DNA of 10,948 bases from UHGV virus genome UHGV-0238331; one strand, given 5' to 3'. Origin of the DNA: a virus. The translations under genes and the position numbers were made by a program. Positions within the stretch are counted from its first letter, which is position 1. The number at the start of each line of letters is the position of its first letter. This document shows, piece by piece, positions 2,280 through 10,948 of the stretch. A model generated the notes under the pieces. The model searched no databases, was not told where the DNA came from, and worked only from the letters and a program-made list of their open reading frames with translations.

Positions 2280-3332
2280 TTATTTCCCCACCAGCTCGTT
2301 TATCTCTTTCACTGTCTGGTTAAACCGCTCTGACTCAAGCTCAACACCTAAGGCCCGACGCCCCAGCGCCATTGCTGCTTTTATTGTGGAACCGGATCCC
2401 ATAAAGAAATCAGCAACCAGATCACCAGGTCGACTACTGGCATTGATTATTTGCCGGAGCATATCCGCCGGTTTCTCGCACGGATGTTTACCCGGGTAGA
2501 ACTGAACGGGCTTATGCGTCCAGACATCGGTATAAGGCACGGAGACTGATACGGAGAAATAGCGCCGGAGAGATTTAAACTCATCCAGCAATTCAGAATA
2601 TTTGCGATTCAGTGAATCATAAGATGCCACCAGCTGGTGGTGTGGTTGTTCCAGTTGTTGTTCCTGAAACTTCTCTGCCGCTATACGGGAAAACAGTGCC
2701 TGTAACTTCCGATAGTCAGCCTCATTCGGCAACTGCCACTGACTGGCACCAAACCAGTGGGAAACCATATTTTTCTTACCTGTAGCTTCGGCAATTTGTT
2801 TTGCCGTTATACCCAGTTCGGCACGAGCATCCCTGAAATACGATATCAGCGGTGCCATTATGTGCTGTTTGAGTTCCCTTTCTTTTGCCGCATAGCCGTC
2901 ATTTTTGGGCTGGTATGGCCCCTGATAATGTTCGGCAAACAGAATGCGCTCTGTTGCCGGGAAATACGCCCGCAGGCTTTCCTTGTTGCACCTGTTCCAG
3001 CGTCCTGACGGCTTCGCCCAGATAATGTGATTCAGCACATTAAAGCGTTCACGCATCATAATTTCGGTGTCAGATGCCAGGCGATGACCACAGAACAGGT
3101 AAAGACTTCCGGCGGGCTTCAGTACCCGCCAGAACTGCGCCAGACACTGGTCCAGCCATTTCAGGTAATCATCGTCCCCCTTCCACTGGTTATCCCAGCT
3201 CTCGGGCTTCACTTTAAAGTATGGCGGGTCTGTGACTATCAGATCGACAGAGTTTTCCGGTAAGGTCTGGATAAATTCCAGGCAATCAGCGTTGATTAAC
3301 TCACAACTGGATATTTTTACAGTATTAGCCAT
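2280..3332 (-). CDS. DNA methyltransferase, beta-class order (DPPY before the SAM motif); N6-adenine or N4-cytosine
   Basis: 350 aa. Motif IV DPPY near the N-terminus (DLIVTDPPYF) and motif I near the C-terminus (DLVADFFMGSGST), with a roughly 200-aa central region presumed to recognise the target. Located between Q/pR' and the lysis cassette. Confidence 0.85.
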   Translation of the reverse strand: MANTVKISSCELINADCLEFIQTLPENSVDLIVTDPPYFKVKPESWDNQWKGDDDYLKWLDQCLAQFWRVLKPAGSLYLFCGHRLASDTEIMMRERFNVLNHIIWAKPSGRWNRCNKESLRAYFPATERILFAEHYQGPYQPKNDGYAAKERELKQHIMAPLISYFRDARAELGITAKQIAEATGKKNMVSHWFGASQWQLPNEADYRKLQALFSRIAAEKFQEQQLEQPHHQLVASYDSLNRKYSELLDEFKSLRRYFSVSVSVPYTDVWTHKPVQFYPGKHPCEKPADMLRQIINASSRPGDLVADFFMGSGSTIKAAMALGRRALGVELESERFNQTVKEINELVGK

Positions 3333-3908: not shown

Positions 3909-4730
3909 CTATCGCGTTACCCTCTTTAACTGCCGCTCCGCCCATGCCTCCTCAATGTCAAACCGAACCACCAACGTATCGTAAAAACGCTTCACTGATT
4001 TTTTCCACGTATCAAGAGTGATAGCGCTCGTCACTTTGCATATGGCATTAAACGCCTCTGTTGACGGCAATCTTTCATAGCCACGACCACCACAACGCTG
4101 GCAGTCTCTGATAACAGGCATACCACGTTTTACCGACTCTTCACGATGAATGGCGACACCACGCCCACGGCAATCCTTACAGGCGGTGGAGACCTCACCC
4201 TTTCCCCCGCATTCAGGACAGGCAACTTTTACCACTTCCCGGACTTTTTTCCATTCTTCCCAGTAAGACGGATACACACCCTTTGTACACTTTGCCCATA
4301 CCGGCGGTTTACCATCCGGATACTGGACCTTGTTTGTAAAAACTACGCTTTCAATAAATTTTTCCCCATGGCAACAAGGGCACTGCTTTTTACTCGCTGC
4401 GCTGCGGGCATAATCCTCAAAAGCATACGAAGCCATAATGCGCATCACTGCCGGTTTTATTTCTGCCGGAAGTTTTCTTAACGCCGCCACGCGATCGCAC
4501 TGACTTAATGCATAATCTGCCAGTAATTCTGTTGCCCGCGCCCTGTCATTCATACTAATGCCCATTTTCCCCAGGAACGCAGAAAATCCCATCTCAGCAC
4601 GGTTTTGTGTCATACCCTGCGCAGCCATCACATCAGTGATACTCAGCGTATCTTTTGACGTCGAGACGGATGCATCAGTCAGGCCAGGCGATTTTGGGGA
4701 GTAGTATTTCGGTAAATCTTCCAGCTTCAT
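3909..4730 (-). CDS. Q: Late-gene antiterminator Q (lambda Q family) with an expanded zinc-finger region
   Basis: 273 aa. Clear blocks of similarity to lambda Q (207 aa) from memory: YSPKSP, TDVMAAQGM, ASYAFEDYARSAA, CQRCGGRGYERLPSTEAF, FYDTLVV. Start forms an ATGA overlap with the rusA stop. Confidence 0.85.
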   Translation of the reverse strand: MKLEDLPKYYSPKSPGLTDASVSTSKDTLSITDVMAAQGMTQNRAEMGFSAFLGKMGISMNDRARATELLADYALSQCDRVAALRKLPAEIKPAVMRIMASYAFEDYARSAASKKQCPCCHGEKFIESVVFTNKVQYPDGKPPVWAKCTKGVYPSYWEEWKKVREVVKVACPECGGKGEVSTACKDCRGRGVAIHREESVKRGMPVIRDCQRCGGRGYERLPSTEAFNAICKVTSAITLDTWKKSVKRFYDTLVVRFDIEEAWAERQLKRVTR

Positions 4731-6896: not shown

Positions 6897-6923
6897 ATAA
6901 AAACAAAAACCCGCCGAAGCGGG
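6897..6923 (-). terminator. Strong rho-independent terminator ending the AT-rich moron transcript
   Basis: Minus-strand RNA has a CCCGC-UUCG-GCGGG hairpin (UUCG tetraloop, 6910-6923) followed by UUUUUGUUUUUAUUUU. Confidence 0.75.
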
Positions 6924-7138
6924 TTAAGTGTGGGTGCGTTGAGGATGCCTGACACATGAGAGGTGGCGAGGGATTTCTCCCCCGCCTGGTCTCTTACTCC
7001 TCAGATTCGTAAGCTGTGAAGACAGCGACCTCCGTCTGGCCGGTTCGGATTCGTACCTCGCAGAGGTCTTTCCTCGTTACCAGTGCCGTCACTATAATAG
7101 TGATGCATATGATGATTAGGGTTTAAACCTCTCCGAAA

Positions 7139-8316: not shown

Positions 8317-8715
8317 TCACCGCATGATATCCTCCGCGCTTATCAGCCCATTCTGATTCAGATACTCCATCGCCTTATCAGGCAAGCTGCTTAAGCTATT
8401 GGCGTACTTTAAGCAGTGAGCCAGTCGTTTAACCCACATTGTTAATTCGCCAACCTGATTACTGGATGCTAGTGGATTGTCAGCTTTACCCAGTCCTTCT
8501 GATATCACCGGGACTGGCGGGGCAGTGAATAAGGCCTGAATTTCATAGTTCGGCCTGTCGTTACAATCCTCTTTTGTCGGTACATATTTCCAGTCACCAA
8601 CCCACATCTTCTCCTGAAAGTCCGTAACGCCCTTTTTCACATAGCGATATCGCCATGCAACTGGTTTTTCCTGCCCTACCGTTTCATGTACTTCCTGATA
8701 ATTAATCTCGCTCAT
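8317..8715 (-). CDS. Hypothetical protein, 132 aa
   Basis: ORF whose ATG overlaps the stop of the upstream 58-aa ORF (ATGA at 8712-8715). No family recognised. Confidence 0.5.
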   Translation of the reverse strand: MSEINYQEVHETVGQEKPVAWRYRYVKKGVTDFQEKMWVGDWKYVPTKEDCNDRPNYEIQALFTAPPVPVISEGLGKADNPLASSNQVGELTMWVKRLAHCLKYANSLSSLPDKAMEYLNQNGLISAEDIMR

Positions 8716-8888
8716 TCATCGCCCCACTCATCACAATATGCTTCGACAGGTGTTTTTCCTGCTTCGTAGTCATCACGCCAGGCTTCAGCCTCAGCAGCAC
8801 TTCCACCACGTAACTCTGCATAATCCATTAACAGTTCATGCCATTCTTCAAAACTGACGTTGTATTTAGTTGAACCAAAATCAGCCAT
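8712..8888 (-). CDS. Small highly acidic protein, 58 aa (not in the ORF track)
   Basis: My translation: MADFGSTKYNVSFEEWHELLMDYAELRGGSAAEAEAWRDDYEAGKTPVEAYCDEWGDE, with 16 Asp/Glu against 4 Lys/Arg. Its start overlaps the stop of the 60-aa ORF (ATGGCTGA) and its stop overlaps the start of the 132-aa ORF. Confidence 0.45.
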   Translation of the reverse strand: MADFGSTKYNVSFEEWHELLMDYAELRGGSAAEAEAWRDDYEAGKTPVEAYCDEWGDE

Positions 8889-9063
8889 TTTGTTCTTCCT
8901 CCTCGTCTTTTATTTCGTGATATGAGTAATTGCAGTAGTTAAAGAAAATTTCTTTTGCTTCGTCATGAATTTCATCTGGTGTTGCGTCATCGTCCACTTC
9001 GAATACATCCTCAAAATCTCCACCAGCTATTCCTGTTTCAATAATTATTTTGAACTTTCGCAT
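8881..9063 (-). CDS. Small highly acidic protein, 60 aa
   Basis: MRKFKIIIETGIAGGDFEDVFEVDDDATPDEIHDEAKEIFFNYCNYSYHEIKDEEEEQNG, with 19 Asp/Glu against 5 Lys/Arg. Preceded by a stable hairpin. Confidence 0.45.
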   Translation of the reverse strand: MRKFKIIIETGIAGGDFEDVFEVDDDATPDEIHDEAKEIFFNYCNYSYHEIKDEEEEQNG

Positions 9064-9207
9064 TTCACTACCGCCCTTTCGGGCGGCCTCCTGATGATTT
9101 GAGGGTACAGAAATCCCTCCGGTTAAGGATTAAATTTTATTTACAGAACTGAATTTAATTATTCAGATATACGTATCTGTAACCTTACGAACCAACTCAC
9201 TGGATGC
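9064..9207 (-). promoter_or_regulatory. Structured intergenic region: GAAA-tetraloop hairpin next to the start codon plus AT-rich dyad symmetries
   Basis: Hairpin CCGCCC-TTTC-GGGCGG (9071-9086) lies 7 nt upstream of the 60-aa ORF start. Second inverted repeat GAGGG...CCCTC (9101-9118). AT-rich segment 9121-9185 contains CTGAAT-TTAATT-ATTCAG and TTACAGA...TCTGTAA inverted repeats. Confidence 0.3.
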
Positions 9208-9681
9208 CTATTTCATAAAAATAATCCAGTGGGTTTTATCGTTTTTTCCTGTTCGTTGACCGATAACAGGTTTTCTGTCGGTCAGTACCAATATCTGGCG
9301 AACAGGTATTTGCGTTTCATTCCATTTAAAAATCAGAACGCCGGATGGACGCAACACACGAAAGGCTTCTTTAAATCCCTGCCGCAAATCATCACGCTAG
9401 GTATCTTTATTCAGCCGTCCATATTTCTTTCCCATCCAGGCGTTATCACCAACACGCTCAAGATGCGGAGGGTCGAATATAACCATCGAAAAAGATGCGT
9501 CTGCAAATGGTAGTGCACGAAAATCAGCTATCAGATCAGGACTGATAATCAGACATCGTCCATCACACAATGTGTGCTCTTCCTTTCTGATATCGCTAAA
9601 TATCGCCAGGTCGTCATTCTTATTGAACCAGAACATGCGACTGCCACAGCACATATCAAGAATGGTTGCCGGTGCACTCAC
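9208..9681 (-). pseudogene. Small phage Dam-like SAM-dependent DNA methyltransferase interrupted by an in-frame amber (TAG) codon
   Basis: The 94-codon ORF (GTG start at 9681) carries motif I (ILDMCCGSR) and motif IV (DPPH) and stops at TAG (complement of 9397-9399). The same frame then runs 58 more sense codons (RDDLRQGFKEAFRVLRPSGVLIFKWNETQ...) to a stop at 9208-9210, giving about 153 codons in total. Confidence 0.6.
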
Positions 9682-10100
9682 TGCGCTACCTCCTGAAAAT
9701 TACCCTGATAGAAAGCCAGTACACGCTGCATAGCTTCGCTCTTCCGGCACTCGCGACAGATTATATTCAGGCGCCTGTCGTAGCGGCGTATTTCTCCGTC
9801 TGGTAATGACCAGATAAGGTCCGGATCAACCGCAGATGGTTTCTTCGGCTTTGCCCTTGAGAGCTTTTTACGGGCATTTTGCCAGTCCTTACGCGCCTGT
9901 TCAGACGGGAATAACCCGTAATCAGAGTTGTATACATCGCCACTGGCAACCAGCTCTCTGGCCAGAACGCTCATCAGATATCTTGTTGCCCCAGTTTTAG
10001 TTTCCAGTTGTCGTAACGTCTCGCGCCCACTCTGGCGTACGAGTTCAACAACCTGCCCTTTAATTTTTTCTCGCTCTTCTTGTGTAAAAACTTTTGCCAC
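9678..10100 (-). CDS. ren: Ren-like protein (homolog of lambda Ren), 140 aa
   Basis: GTG start 4 nt after AGGAGG. C-terminus NIICRECRKSEAMQRVLAFY resembles lambda Ren NLVFKECRQSAAMKRVLAVY, and a central TGAT-containing helix region is also similar. Comparison is from memory. Confidence 0.6.
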   Translation of the reverse strand: MAKVFTQEEREKIKGQVVELVRQSGRETLRQLETKTGATRYLMSVLARELVASGDVYNSDYGLFPSEQARKDWQNARKKLSRAKPKKPSAVDPDLIWSLPDGEIRRYDRRLNIICRECRKSEAMQRVLAFYQGNFQEVAQ

Positions 10101-10140: not shown

Positions 10141-10948
10141 TTACCCCCTGAAGCCCGGCGGAATTTCGGTGTCCGGCTCGGAAATATGATTTACACATCG
10201 CTGTACAGGCGAACGCCCCAGGCGGATGACCAGTTCGTCCCATTTTTCGCGAAGCTTTAACGGGCTCATGATGTTTTTTACCCAGAATGGATCCCGCTGT
10301 ACCCGACCAAACATTTCACAAATTTGTCTGTGGCTTCTGCCATCCAGCATCCGCATTGTGCGCACGTCATTGGCCCAGGCAGTCCAGTTAGGCTCTTTTG
10401 GTCGCATGATCTCGCCATCATCACTGGCTGCCTGTTCGTAGAGACCCACGATCCGCCCCCAGATCCACTGCGCACACGCCAAATCCTCCCTGCTACCCCA
10501 CTGGCGTTTTTTCGCACTAAACACAACCGCGTCGGAGTTCCGGGTTAAAAAATCCTGTTCAGTCGTCTGCGGGTCCGGTTGCGAAGCTTCCGGACGAAAA
10601 GTGTTTTTATTCTCTGTAGTAATCTCTGTTGTATTCTCTGTAAGATCATCAGGCCATTTTGACCCGATGACATTGGGTCGTTTTGAACCAATGGAGCGTT
10701 TCATTTTGACCTCTTCCATCGTGTCATTTTGACCTGATGGAGCGGCGCATTTTGAACCGATGGATTCGCTCAATTTGCCACCATCTAAAAGCTCGCTCCC
10801 ATAGTTGATCGTGTAGAAATTGGTCATATCGCGCTTTGATTTATTGAGCTTTTCACAACGCAAAAGCCCCAGCGTTTTCAGACTTGCAAACGCGCGCTTT
10901 AACGTTGACTCTGACCAGAATGGGAACTGTTCCAGCCATTGTTCCGTT
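10141..10948 (-). CDS. O: Replication initiator, lambda O-like; N-terminus lies beyond the window end
   Basis: Frame is open to position 10948 (TEQWLEQFPFWSESTLKRAFASLKTLGLLRCEKL...). C-terminal block PNWTAWANDVRTMRMLDGRSHRQICEMFGRVQRDPFWVKNIMSPLKLREKWDELVI resembles the lambda O C-terminal domain. Iterons lie inside the gene, as for ori-lambda. Confidence 0.8.
   Translation of the reverse strand, partial: TEQWLEQFPFWSESTLKRAFASLKTLGLLRCEKLNKSKRDMTNFYTINYGSELLDGGKLSESIGSKCAAPSGQNDTMEEVKMKRSIGSKRPNVIGSKWPDDLTENTTEITTENKNTFRPEASQPDPQTTEQDFLTRNSDAVVFSAKKRQWGSREDLACAQWIWGRIVGLYEQAASDDGEIMRPKEPNWTAWANDVRTMRMLDGRSHRQICEMFGRVQRDPFWVKNIMSPLKLREKWDELVIRLGRSPVQRCVNHISEPDTEIPPGFRG
10600..10790. repeat. 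Replication origin inside O: about six iterons (consensus TTTTGAcC-n-GATGG, 23-25 bp period) plus an adjacent AT-rich TCTCTGT-repeat segment
   Basis: Iteron copies start near 10657, 10681, 10704, 10728, 10750 and 10771. AT-rich segment 10600-10650 carries three TCTCTGT repeats. The iterons encode a repeated IGSK peptide in O. Confidence 0.6.

Follow-up and report, generated by a model that had tools for sequence, protein, structure and literature searches.

Two overlapping genes for small, highly acidic proteins in the early region of a lambdoid prophage

The stretch of DNA analyzed here, referred to as the window, is 10,948 nucleotides (nt) of the virus genome UHGV-0238331, a Rac/Qin-type lambdoid prophage that is read on the minus strand. 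Within it lie two adjacent genes, here called orfA and orfB, that encode very acidic proteins of 60 and 58 amino acids (aa). Both are genuine genes under strong purifying selection, and they belong to two evolutionarily unrelated families. Our preferred overall reading, which we hold tentatively and with somewhat less than even confidence, is that these are two unrelated mobile-element accessory genes, joined in a translationally coupled cassette, whose products use their charge to bind and inhibit host proteins that bind nucleic acids.

The acidic gene pair

The two open reading frames (ORFs) and the features of their junction are as follows.

orfA, 8881 to 9063, minus strand: 60-aa acidic protein, DUF7167 / PHROG 1997; predicted beta-beta-alpha-beta fold with an acidic C-terminal helix
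orfB, 8712 to 8888, minus strand: 58-aa acidic protein, PHROG 519; predicted three-helix bundle
orfA/orfB start/stop overlap ATGGCTGA, 8881 to 8888, minus strand: 8 nt, in which the orfB ATG overlaps the orfA TGA
orfB Shine-Dalgarno sequence GGAGG, 8898 to 8902, minus strand: 9 nt before the orfB ATG, read from the sequence

Read from 9063 down to 8881, orfA encodes MRKFKIIIETGIAGGDFEDVFEVDDDATPDEIHDEAKEIFFNYCNYSYHEIKDEEEEQNG (60 aa), and orfB, read from 8888 to 8712, encodes MADFGSTKYNVSFEEWHELLMDYAELRGGSAAEAEAWRDDYEAGKTPVEAYCDEWGDE (58 aa). Asp and Glu together number 19 in the first protein and 16 in the second, against five and four Lys and Arg residues, and the isoelectric points (pI) are 4.06 and 4.05. 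When the window's 85 six-frame ORFs of 40 aa or more are ranked by acidic fraction, these two come out on top, at 0.32 and 0.28; the next reaches 0.15 and the mean is 0.067. The features of the acidic pair exceed chance expectation. A first-pass annotation made from the sequence had reported the coordinates, the overlap and the 19/5 and 16/4 charge counts, all of which we found to be correct. It had also remarked that the second ORF was absent from the ORF track; this is true, the reason being a 60-aa cutoff, and RefSeq has both ORFs (WP_001224672.1, DUF7167, for orfA; WP_000753060.1, hypothetical, for orfB).

That annotation had treated both ORFs as real, and the pattern of polymorphism bears this out. 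The ratio of nonsynonymous to synonymous polymorphism (pN/pS), computed on 37 distinct alleles of orfA and 33 of orfB, is 0.073 and 0.092, respectively, in the annotated frames; shifted frames give values of 0.8 to 5.5. Segregating sites fall mostly at the third codon position (first/second/third, 4/9/28 in orfA and 8/10/25 in orfB). Each exact protein is found on at least 1000 contigs, where the labels are only "hypothetical", "prophage protein" or "DUF7167".

Translational coupling, likewise proposed in the first pass, is strongly suggested by the arrangement of the junction. orfB starts 5 nt ahead of the orfA stop codon, and its GGAGG sits within the GAG GAG GAA GAA codons of the poly-Glu tail of orfA, so that part of the acidity of orfA doubles as the ribosome-binding site of orfB. 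The pair therefore combines a start/stop overlap and a Shine-Dalgarno sequence inside the upstream gene with conservation among relatives, the 8-nt junction being kept in 78 of 79 related loci in IMG/VR. Moreover, in IncI2 plasmids orfB has the identical ATGGCTGA overlap with DUF1187, an unrelated gene upstream of it. Since orfB carries an out-of-frame TGA in codons 2 to 3 and makes the same overlap with unrelated upstream genes, the junction appears to be portable. A Klebsiella plasmid, as annotated, has an 8-nt overlap of orfB with yet another unrelated upstream gene.

The acidity itself is conserved. Distant homologues stay acidic (pI 4.05 to 4.6), and in the orfB family the pI is below 5 in 49 of 55 cluster representatives. 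The orfB columns with at least 60% Asp or Glu are 14, 15, 33, 35, 39, 42, 49, 53, 54 and 57, beside a conserved R38; in orfA, 19 positions are at least 60% acidic in 14 diverse homologues, with E9, E22 and D25 near-invariant. Because the acidic residues are kept at specific columns, the charge is a selected, position-specific trait and not a quirk of composition. Judged from these alignments, the acidity of both families is probably functional.

Families, spread and predicted folds

orfA is a full-length member of DUF7167 / PHROG 1997, with no difference from the family, which is without an assigned function. Residues 2 to 53 align to profile positions 1 to 60 of 60 of DUF7167 (PF23768) at 53.6 bits against a cutoff of 24.4, and the match to phrog_1997 is at 2e-30; the family motif is MRK.K..IET..GG...FEV.DDAT.EEI..EAK..F.N.CNY. 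Homologues of about 56 aa and 40 to 68% identity, found without orfB, are encoded by a Klebsiella lambdoid phage (in the nin region), Klebsiella Guernseyvirinae, Enterococcus Kochikohdavirus and a Pseudomonas jumbo-like phage. Plasmids account for 15 records only. A contig from a "Collinsella" metagenome-assembled genome carries a DUF7167 protein 95% identical to orfA, and an "Actinobacillus phage" record (PP818812.1) matches this Escherichia coli prophage region with 94% DNA identity; both records likely reflect host misassignment or mis-binning.

The AlphaFold2 (AF2) model of orfA, built on 12 sequences, has a pLDDT (predicted local distance difference test) score of 79, with strands at 2 to 9 and 16 to 23, a helix at 29 to 39, a strand at 45 to 51 and an acidic C-terminal helix. 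Its structural neighbors are generic alpha/beta sandwiches, several small phage inhibitors among them: T7 Gp2 (4.8), T4 Dmd (4.5), AcrIIC3 (4.3), AcrIC9 (4.1) and AcrIE2 (3.9). Homology with T7 Gp2 (PDB 2LMC/2WNM) is not demonstrable, the hhalign probability being 0.6% (E = 0.089) and the resemblance topological only. When the two are compared by eye, orfA (NYSYHEIKD) lacks equivalents of the arginines in strand 3 of Gp2 (FEVTRVRP). Shut-off of the Gp2 type is unlikely in any case, because a lambdoid phage depends on the host RNA polymerase.

orfB has no Pfam match. It matches phrog_519 at 3.4e-22 over positions 76 to 137 of 143, which is the conserved C-terminal domain, with the motif F.EW...L...A..GGSAADA.AWR.DYE.GKTP..A..DEWG. 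Among phages lacking orfA, homologues occur in the Ackermannviridae (Cba120 orf183, Menlow), the P22-like UPF_BP1 and one T7-like phage of Enterobacter; PHROG 519 is represented in Kuttervirus, Taipeivirus and P22-like phages. HMMER, run exhaustively over 1.84 billion cluster representatives, yielded only 80 clusters of the orfB family at E <=1e-3, mostly stand-alone proteins of 48 to 80 aa, with one fused to a Mu GemA domain. The profile used (188 positions) took in the C-terminal extension of one long member, and the two top matches to that extension were excluded.

Unexpectedly, 554 plasmid records, 516 of them conjugative, also have orfB homologues. At 80 to 90% identity there are 415 records; the listed examples are about 57 to 67 kb, and the plasmid examined more closely is of the IncI2 type and carries mcr-1. 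The IncI2 array runs CaiF/GrlA - DUF1187 - orfB - SPFH - NfeD and lies about 15 kb from mobC and the relaxase gene (e.g., NZ_MH271383.1, 29335 to 29511); it may be on the leading side of the origin of transfer (oriT). The IncT plasmid Rts1 and large MOBH plasmids of Klebsiella have orfB too, amid runs of small same-strand ORFs. The AF2 model of orfB (28 sequences, pLDDT 89.8) is a three-helix bundle with helices at 13 to 26, 34 to 42 and 47 to 55, whose core is presumably formed, in this model, by the conserved F13, W16, L20, A24, W37, Y41, A50, W/F51 and W55. Structural neighbors of orfB are generic helical subdomains.

As a cassette, the two genes are common. Matches to a 501-nt query spanning them were found in 2555 of the 5426 complete E. 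coli genomes; in 1739 genomes the match extends over at least 80% of the query length. In Shiga toxin 2a (Stx2a) phages the same pair recurs, its 8-nt overlap unchanged, in the early region near int (ArgO145 gp15 and gp14), flanked by Ead/Ea22-like genes. Its presence in this second location marks the pair as a mobile two-gene module. No natural fusion of the two proteins was found; long Ead/Ea22 and DUF1187 "fusions" look like read-through calls across the junction or leader.

Prophage surroundings and leader

In the window, the minus strand begins with an O-like replisome organizer gene (10141 to 10863), DUF977 (9678 to 10100), a small S-adenosylmethionine (SAM) methyltransferase gene and a 144-nt leader, followed by orfA, orfB and the downstream gene orfC. 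Beyond orfC come genes for a P63C/Ant-like protein, DUF968, RusA, Q (3909 to 4730), a DNA methylase, holin, lysozyme and Rz. This order places the pair between the replication genes and Q, in the nin-like part of the delayed-early rightward operon, and so agrees with the phage early-region location given in the first pass. The methyltransferase gene (9208 to 9681, minus strand) is a pseudogene, cut to 94 aa by a TGG to TAG change at 9397 to 9399; a near-identical gene in E. coli O177:H21 is intact (157 aa). Given this truncation, most of the 333-nt "intergenic" gap is dead coding sequence, which leaves a true leader of 144 nt. The remaining features around the pair are these.

orfC, 8317 to 8715, minus strand: 132 aa, downstream of orfB; N-terminal part PHROG 660, C-terminal part PHROG 924
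GAAA-tetraloop hairpin GCCGCCC-GAAA-GGGCGGU, 9070 to 9087, minus strand: seven pairs, the outermost G.U; upstream of the orfA ATG
AGGAGG, 9087 to 9092, minus strand: strong Shine-Dalgarno-like hexamer, abutting the 5' side of the GAAA hairpin
GAGGG...CCCTC, 9101 to 9119, minus strand: second, weaker leader hairpin, found by folding, with 98% of cells paired

The orfB TGA overlaps the orfC ATG in ATGA. Of known families, orfC matched only PHROG 660 and 924, neither with an assigned function; it is a chimera, and its MSEINYQ start also opens an Ead/Ea22-domain protein.

The stable GAAA hairpin that had been noted 7 nt before the first gene is indeed present, and at -14.8 kcal/mol it is the most stable short hairpin of the minus strand; ten shuffles of the window gave 0 to 1 hairpins at or below -13 kcal/mol per 10.9 kb. 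Its distance from the orfA ATG is 6 nt counting the terminal G.U pair and 7 nt without it. In 30 distinct related leaders, 92% of cells in the stem are paired, with a few G-C to A-U and G.U to A-U changes. Covariation among these leaders was not above the shuffle control, so selection for the structure is not demonstrated; the second leader hairpin likewise gave covariation not above shuffle controls, and a GAGTG/CACTC leader variant considered as a compensatory change was rejected, since it makes a U-U mismatch. The GAAA hairpin has no U-tract, being followed by AGUGAAAUG, and therefore is not an intrinsic terminator; the terminator scan did not call it. Rfam has no family matching the leader.

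The AGGAGG hexamer, kept as AGGAGG or AGGAGA in most related leaders, lies 23 nt from the orfA ATG, or about 7 nt with the hairpin looped out. Split ribosome-binding sites are known from T4 genes 38 and 25. By analogy, AGGAGG, hairpin and AUG may together form a split ribosome-binding site resembling that of T4 gene 38; alternatively, GGCGGU in the 3' arm of the hairpin may be a weak, sequestered Shine-Dalgarno sequence. In the stretch 9064 to 9135 (minus strand), mosaic breakpoints cluster at or inside the hairpin: homology with Stx phage ArgO145 starts at about CAGGAGG, and other variants break within the stem. Where the leader forms an open frame continuous with orfA, as in some genomes, gene callers give N-terminally extended or "fused" DUF7167 proteins of 87 to 166 aa, e.g., Ead/Ea22+DUF7167. 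A perfect inverted repeat, CTGAAT-AATTAA-ATTCAG (9149 to 9166, minus strand), about 90 nt upstream of orfA, is kept in most related loci, and no promoter-like site was found near it.

Two further observations concern other parts of the window. At 6904 to 6985 (minus strand) there is a sub-threshold Rfam match to the prophage small RNA isrK (25.9 bits, where the gathering score is 50; E = 0.027), which coincides with the second most stable short hairpin of the strand (about 6987, -14.0 kcal/mol). The methylase gene between the Q antiterminator and the holin (2280 to 3332, minus strand) encodes a 350-aa N6/N4 DNA methylase. In Stx phages, this late-operon slot between Q and holin is the site of the toxin gene.

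Possible functions of the pair

In the reading we prefer, the pair would be transcribed in lambdoid prophages with the delayed-early operon, during lytic growth or on induction, and the two proteins would be made together by virtue of the GGAGG in the orfA tail and the orfB start ahead of the orfA stop. Each protein is predicted to be a tiny compact domain with conserved Asp and Glu on its surface, which would bind stoichiometrically to the positively charged nucleic-acid-binding surfaces of host proteins. Candidate targets would be a nuclease of defense or repair, or some comparable enzyme that handles DNA or RNA, with the phage protein serving as an electrostatic decoy or inhibitor. The proposed functional model for such binding and inhibition is TifA (Orf65 of Enterococcus phage phi47), an inhibitor of type IV restriction; Ocr exemplifies the strict-mimic form. 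TifA is an electronegative small phage protein that binds and inhibits defense nucleases and is not a strict DNA mimic (PMC11322646). The likeness lies in small size and an electronegative surface; in contrast, TifA is predicted to be SH3-like, has 21% acidic residues and is unrelated in fold to orfA and orfB. The presence of orfB on conjugative plasmids and virulent phages fits a host-directed accessory role. Indeed, since temperate phages, virulent phages and plasmids do not share a life cycle, its occurrence in all of them points to a host-directed function. PHROG 519 members in Kuttervirus have received marginal machine-learning anti-CRISPR predictions (PMC9409062), a label that is a prediction only.

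Several considerations weigh against inhibition of host proteins by charge. Searches of the literature by accession or sequence returned nothing on either family, bar the one machine-learning-based anti-CRISPR listing for phrog_519. The predicted three-helix bundle and small alpha/beta sandwich are generic folds, and small acidic proteins also serve as chaperones, antitoxins or regulators. Part of the acidity of orfA, the EEEE tail, has a second role as the orfB ribosome-binding site. The neighborhoods of distant homologues are inconsistent: a PD-(D/E)XK nuclease gene is beside orfA in one lineage only, and the IncI2 orfB operon, with its CaiF/GrlA-type regulator and SPFH/NfeD membrane proteins, is no obvious anti-defense island. 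An inhibitor of RecBCD, an idea drawn from exonuclease adjacency, lost ground on closer examination: what passes for an "exonuclease" in the Enterococcus phages is a DUF3850/ASCH protein, which leaves the neighbor in Klebsiella Guernseyvirinae as the one real PD-(D/E)XK nuclease.

No homology or significant fold match supports a specific target. PADLOC and NCBIfam have nothing for orfA or orfB; the PDB, searched with single sequences and with profiles at E up to 10, gave chance-level matches only, none of them relevant; and BFVD returned uncharacterized small phage proteins only, none at E <=1e-3. The first-pass annotation had likened the pair to host-takeover and anti-defense factors. The part of this proposal that stands is that these are early phage genes, apparently coupled, with selected, position-specific acidity; the part left unsupported is a relationship to known factors, since neither Ocr nor ArdA, nor any anti-CRISPR or solved structure, is matched in sequence. 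A bolder version, in which one or both proteins found new families of anti-defense factors or host-nuclease inhibitors, we consider unlikely, if worth stating. In it, the three-helix domain of orfB, common to temperate and virulent enterobacterial phages and to hundreds of conjugative plasmids (IncI2, IncT and MOBH-type), would be a broad-host "establishment" factor that disables a DNA-targeting host enzyme by charge mimicry, and DUF7167 would be a Gp2/Dmd-like plug for another host enzyme.

The pair might instead modulate phage development, affecting the lysis-lysogeny decision or the efficiency of induction as do Orf60a, Orf61, Orf63, Ea8.5 and Ea22 from the exo-xis region of λ and Stx phages. 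The λ exo-xis ORFs (orf60a, orf61, orf63, ea8.5) resemble the pair in length (about 60 aa) and in their place in a lambdoid early operon among Ea22-like genes. Moreover, the Stx2a pair lies between two Ead/Ea22-like genes in the int-proximal early region, orfB of the P22-like UPF_BP1 directly follows an Ead/Ea22-like gene, and exo-xis genes affect lysogenization, according to two reports (PMC3824215, PMC7093339). However, the pair in the window is in the rightward, nin-like region, and homologues occur in the strictly virulent Ackermannviridae, Herelleviridae and Autographiviridae and on conjugative plasmids, none of which faces a lysogeny decision. The PDB searches, with no significant sequence match to any solved structure, lend this idea no help either, and we judge it improbable.

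We likewise give a low probability to accessory factors for the element's own replication or recombination, such as an acidic protein that chaperones or regulates a basic nuclease or DNA-binding protein. The location invites the idea, for the cassette is immediately downstream of the O-like organizer, DUF977 and methyltransferase module. In Klebsiella phage VLCpiS11a the orfA homologue runs into the start of a DUF2800/PD-(D/E)XK nuclease gene, which is next to a single-stranded DNA-binding (SSB)/annealing protein gene; in one protein an orfB domain is joined to a Mu GemA domain; and the IncI2 orfB is about 1.8 kb from repA. Nevertheless, no partner gene is consistently adjacent across lineages, and each family is found without the other and is tied to no single replication system.

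Strict mimicry of B-DNA, as by T7 Ocr and plasmid ArdA, with acidic side chains copying the phosphate pattern of the duplex to block type I restriction or a similar activity, appears quite improbable. The high acidic content and low pI of DNA mimics are found in both proteins (32% and 28% Asp plus Glu, pI about 4), and their small size, conserved acidic positions and phage early operon are in keeping with it; Ocr and ArdA, too, are very acidic, encoded by mobile elements and expressed early. Yet they have no sequence or fold similarity to orfA or orfB, Pfam gives orfA only DUF7167 and orfB nothing, and no DNA-mimic structure is among the structural matches of either protein. Ocr and ArdA are also larger, elongated dimers. 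Finally, spurious or decaying ORFs, acidic by accident of GA-rich sequence, might be suspected from their very short length and the adjacent methyltransferase pseudogene, but this has a negligible chance of being right, being excluded by the selection data (pN/pS 0.07 to 0.09 with a third-position bias of segregating sites), and homologues across phyla of phages and plasmids and confident fold predictions also speak against it.

The pair represents already catalogued hypothetical families and ordinary lambdoid mosaic cargo; an anti-defense role is plausible, and the two proteins are reasonable candidates for anti-defense screening. Roughly one in two complete E. coli genomes has the cassette, and members of the orfB family are carried as well by the IncI2 plasmids through which mcr-1 spreads. 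If charge-based inhibition of host proteins is not what these proteins do, they would be ordinary "hypothetical" cargo of mosaic early regions. If, however, they neutralize restriction, RecBCD or other DNA-targeting defenses, two compact inhibitor families of about 60 residues would be added, and this would help to explain how lambdoid phages and IncI2 plasmids become established in new hosts.

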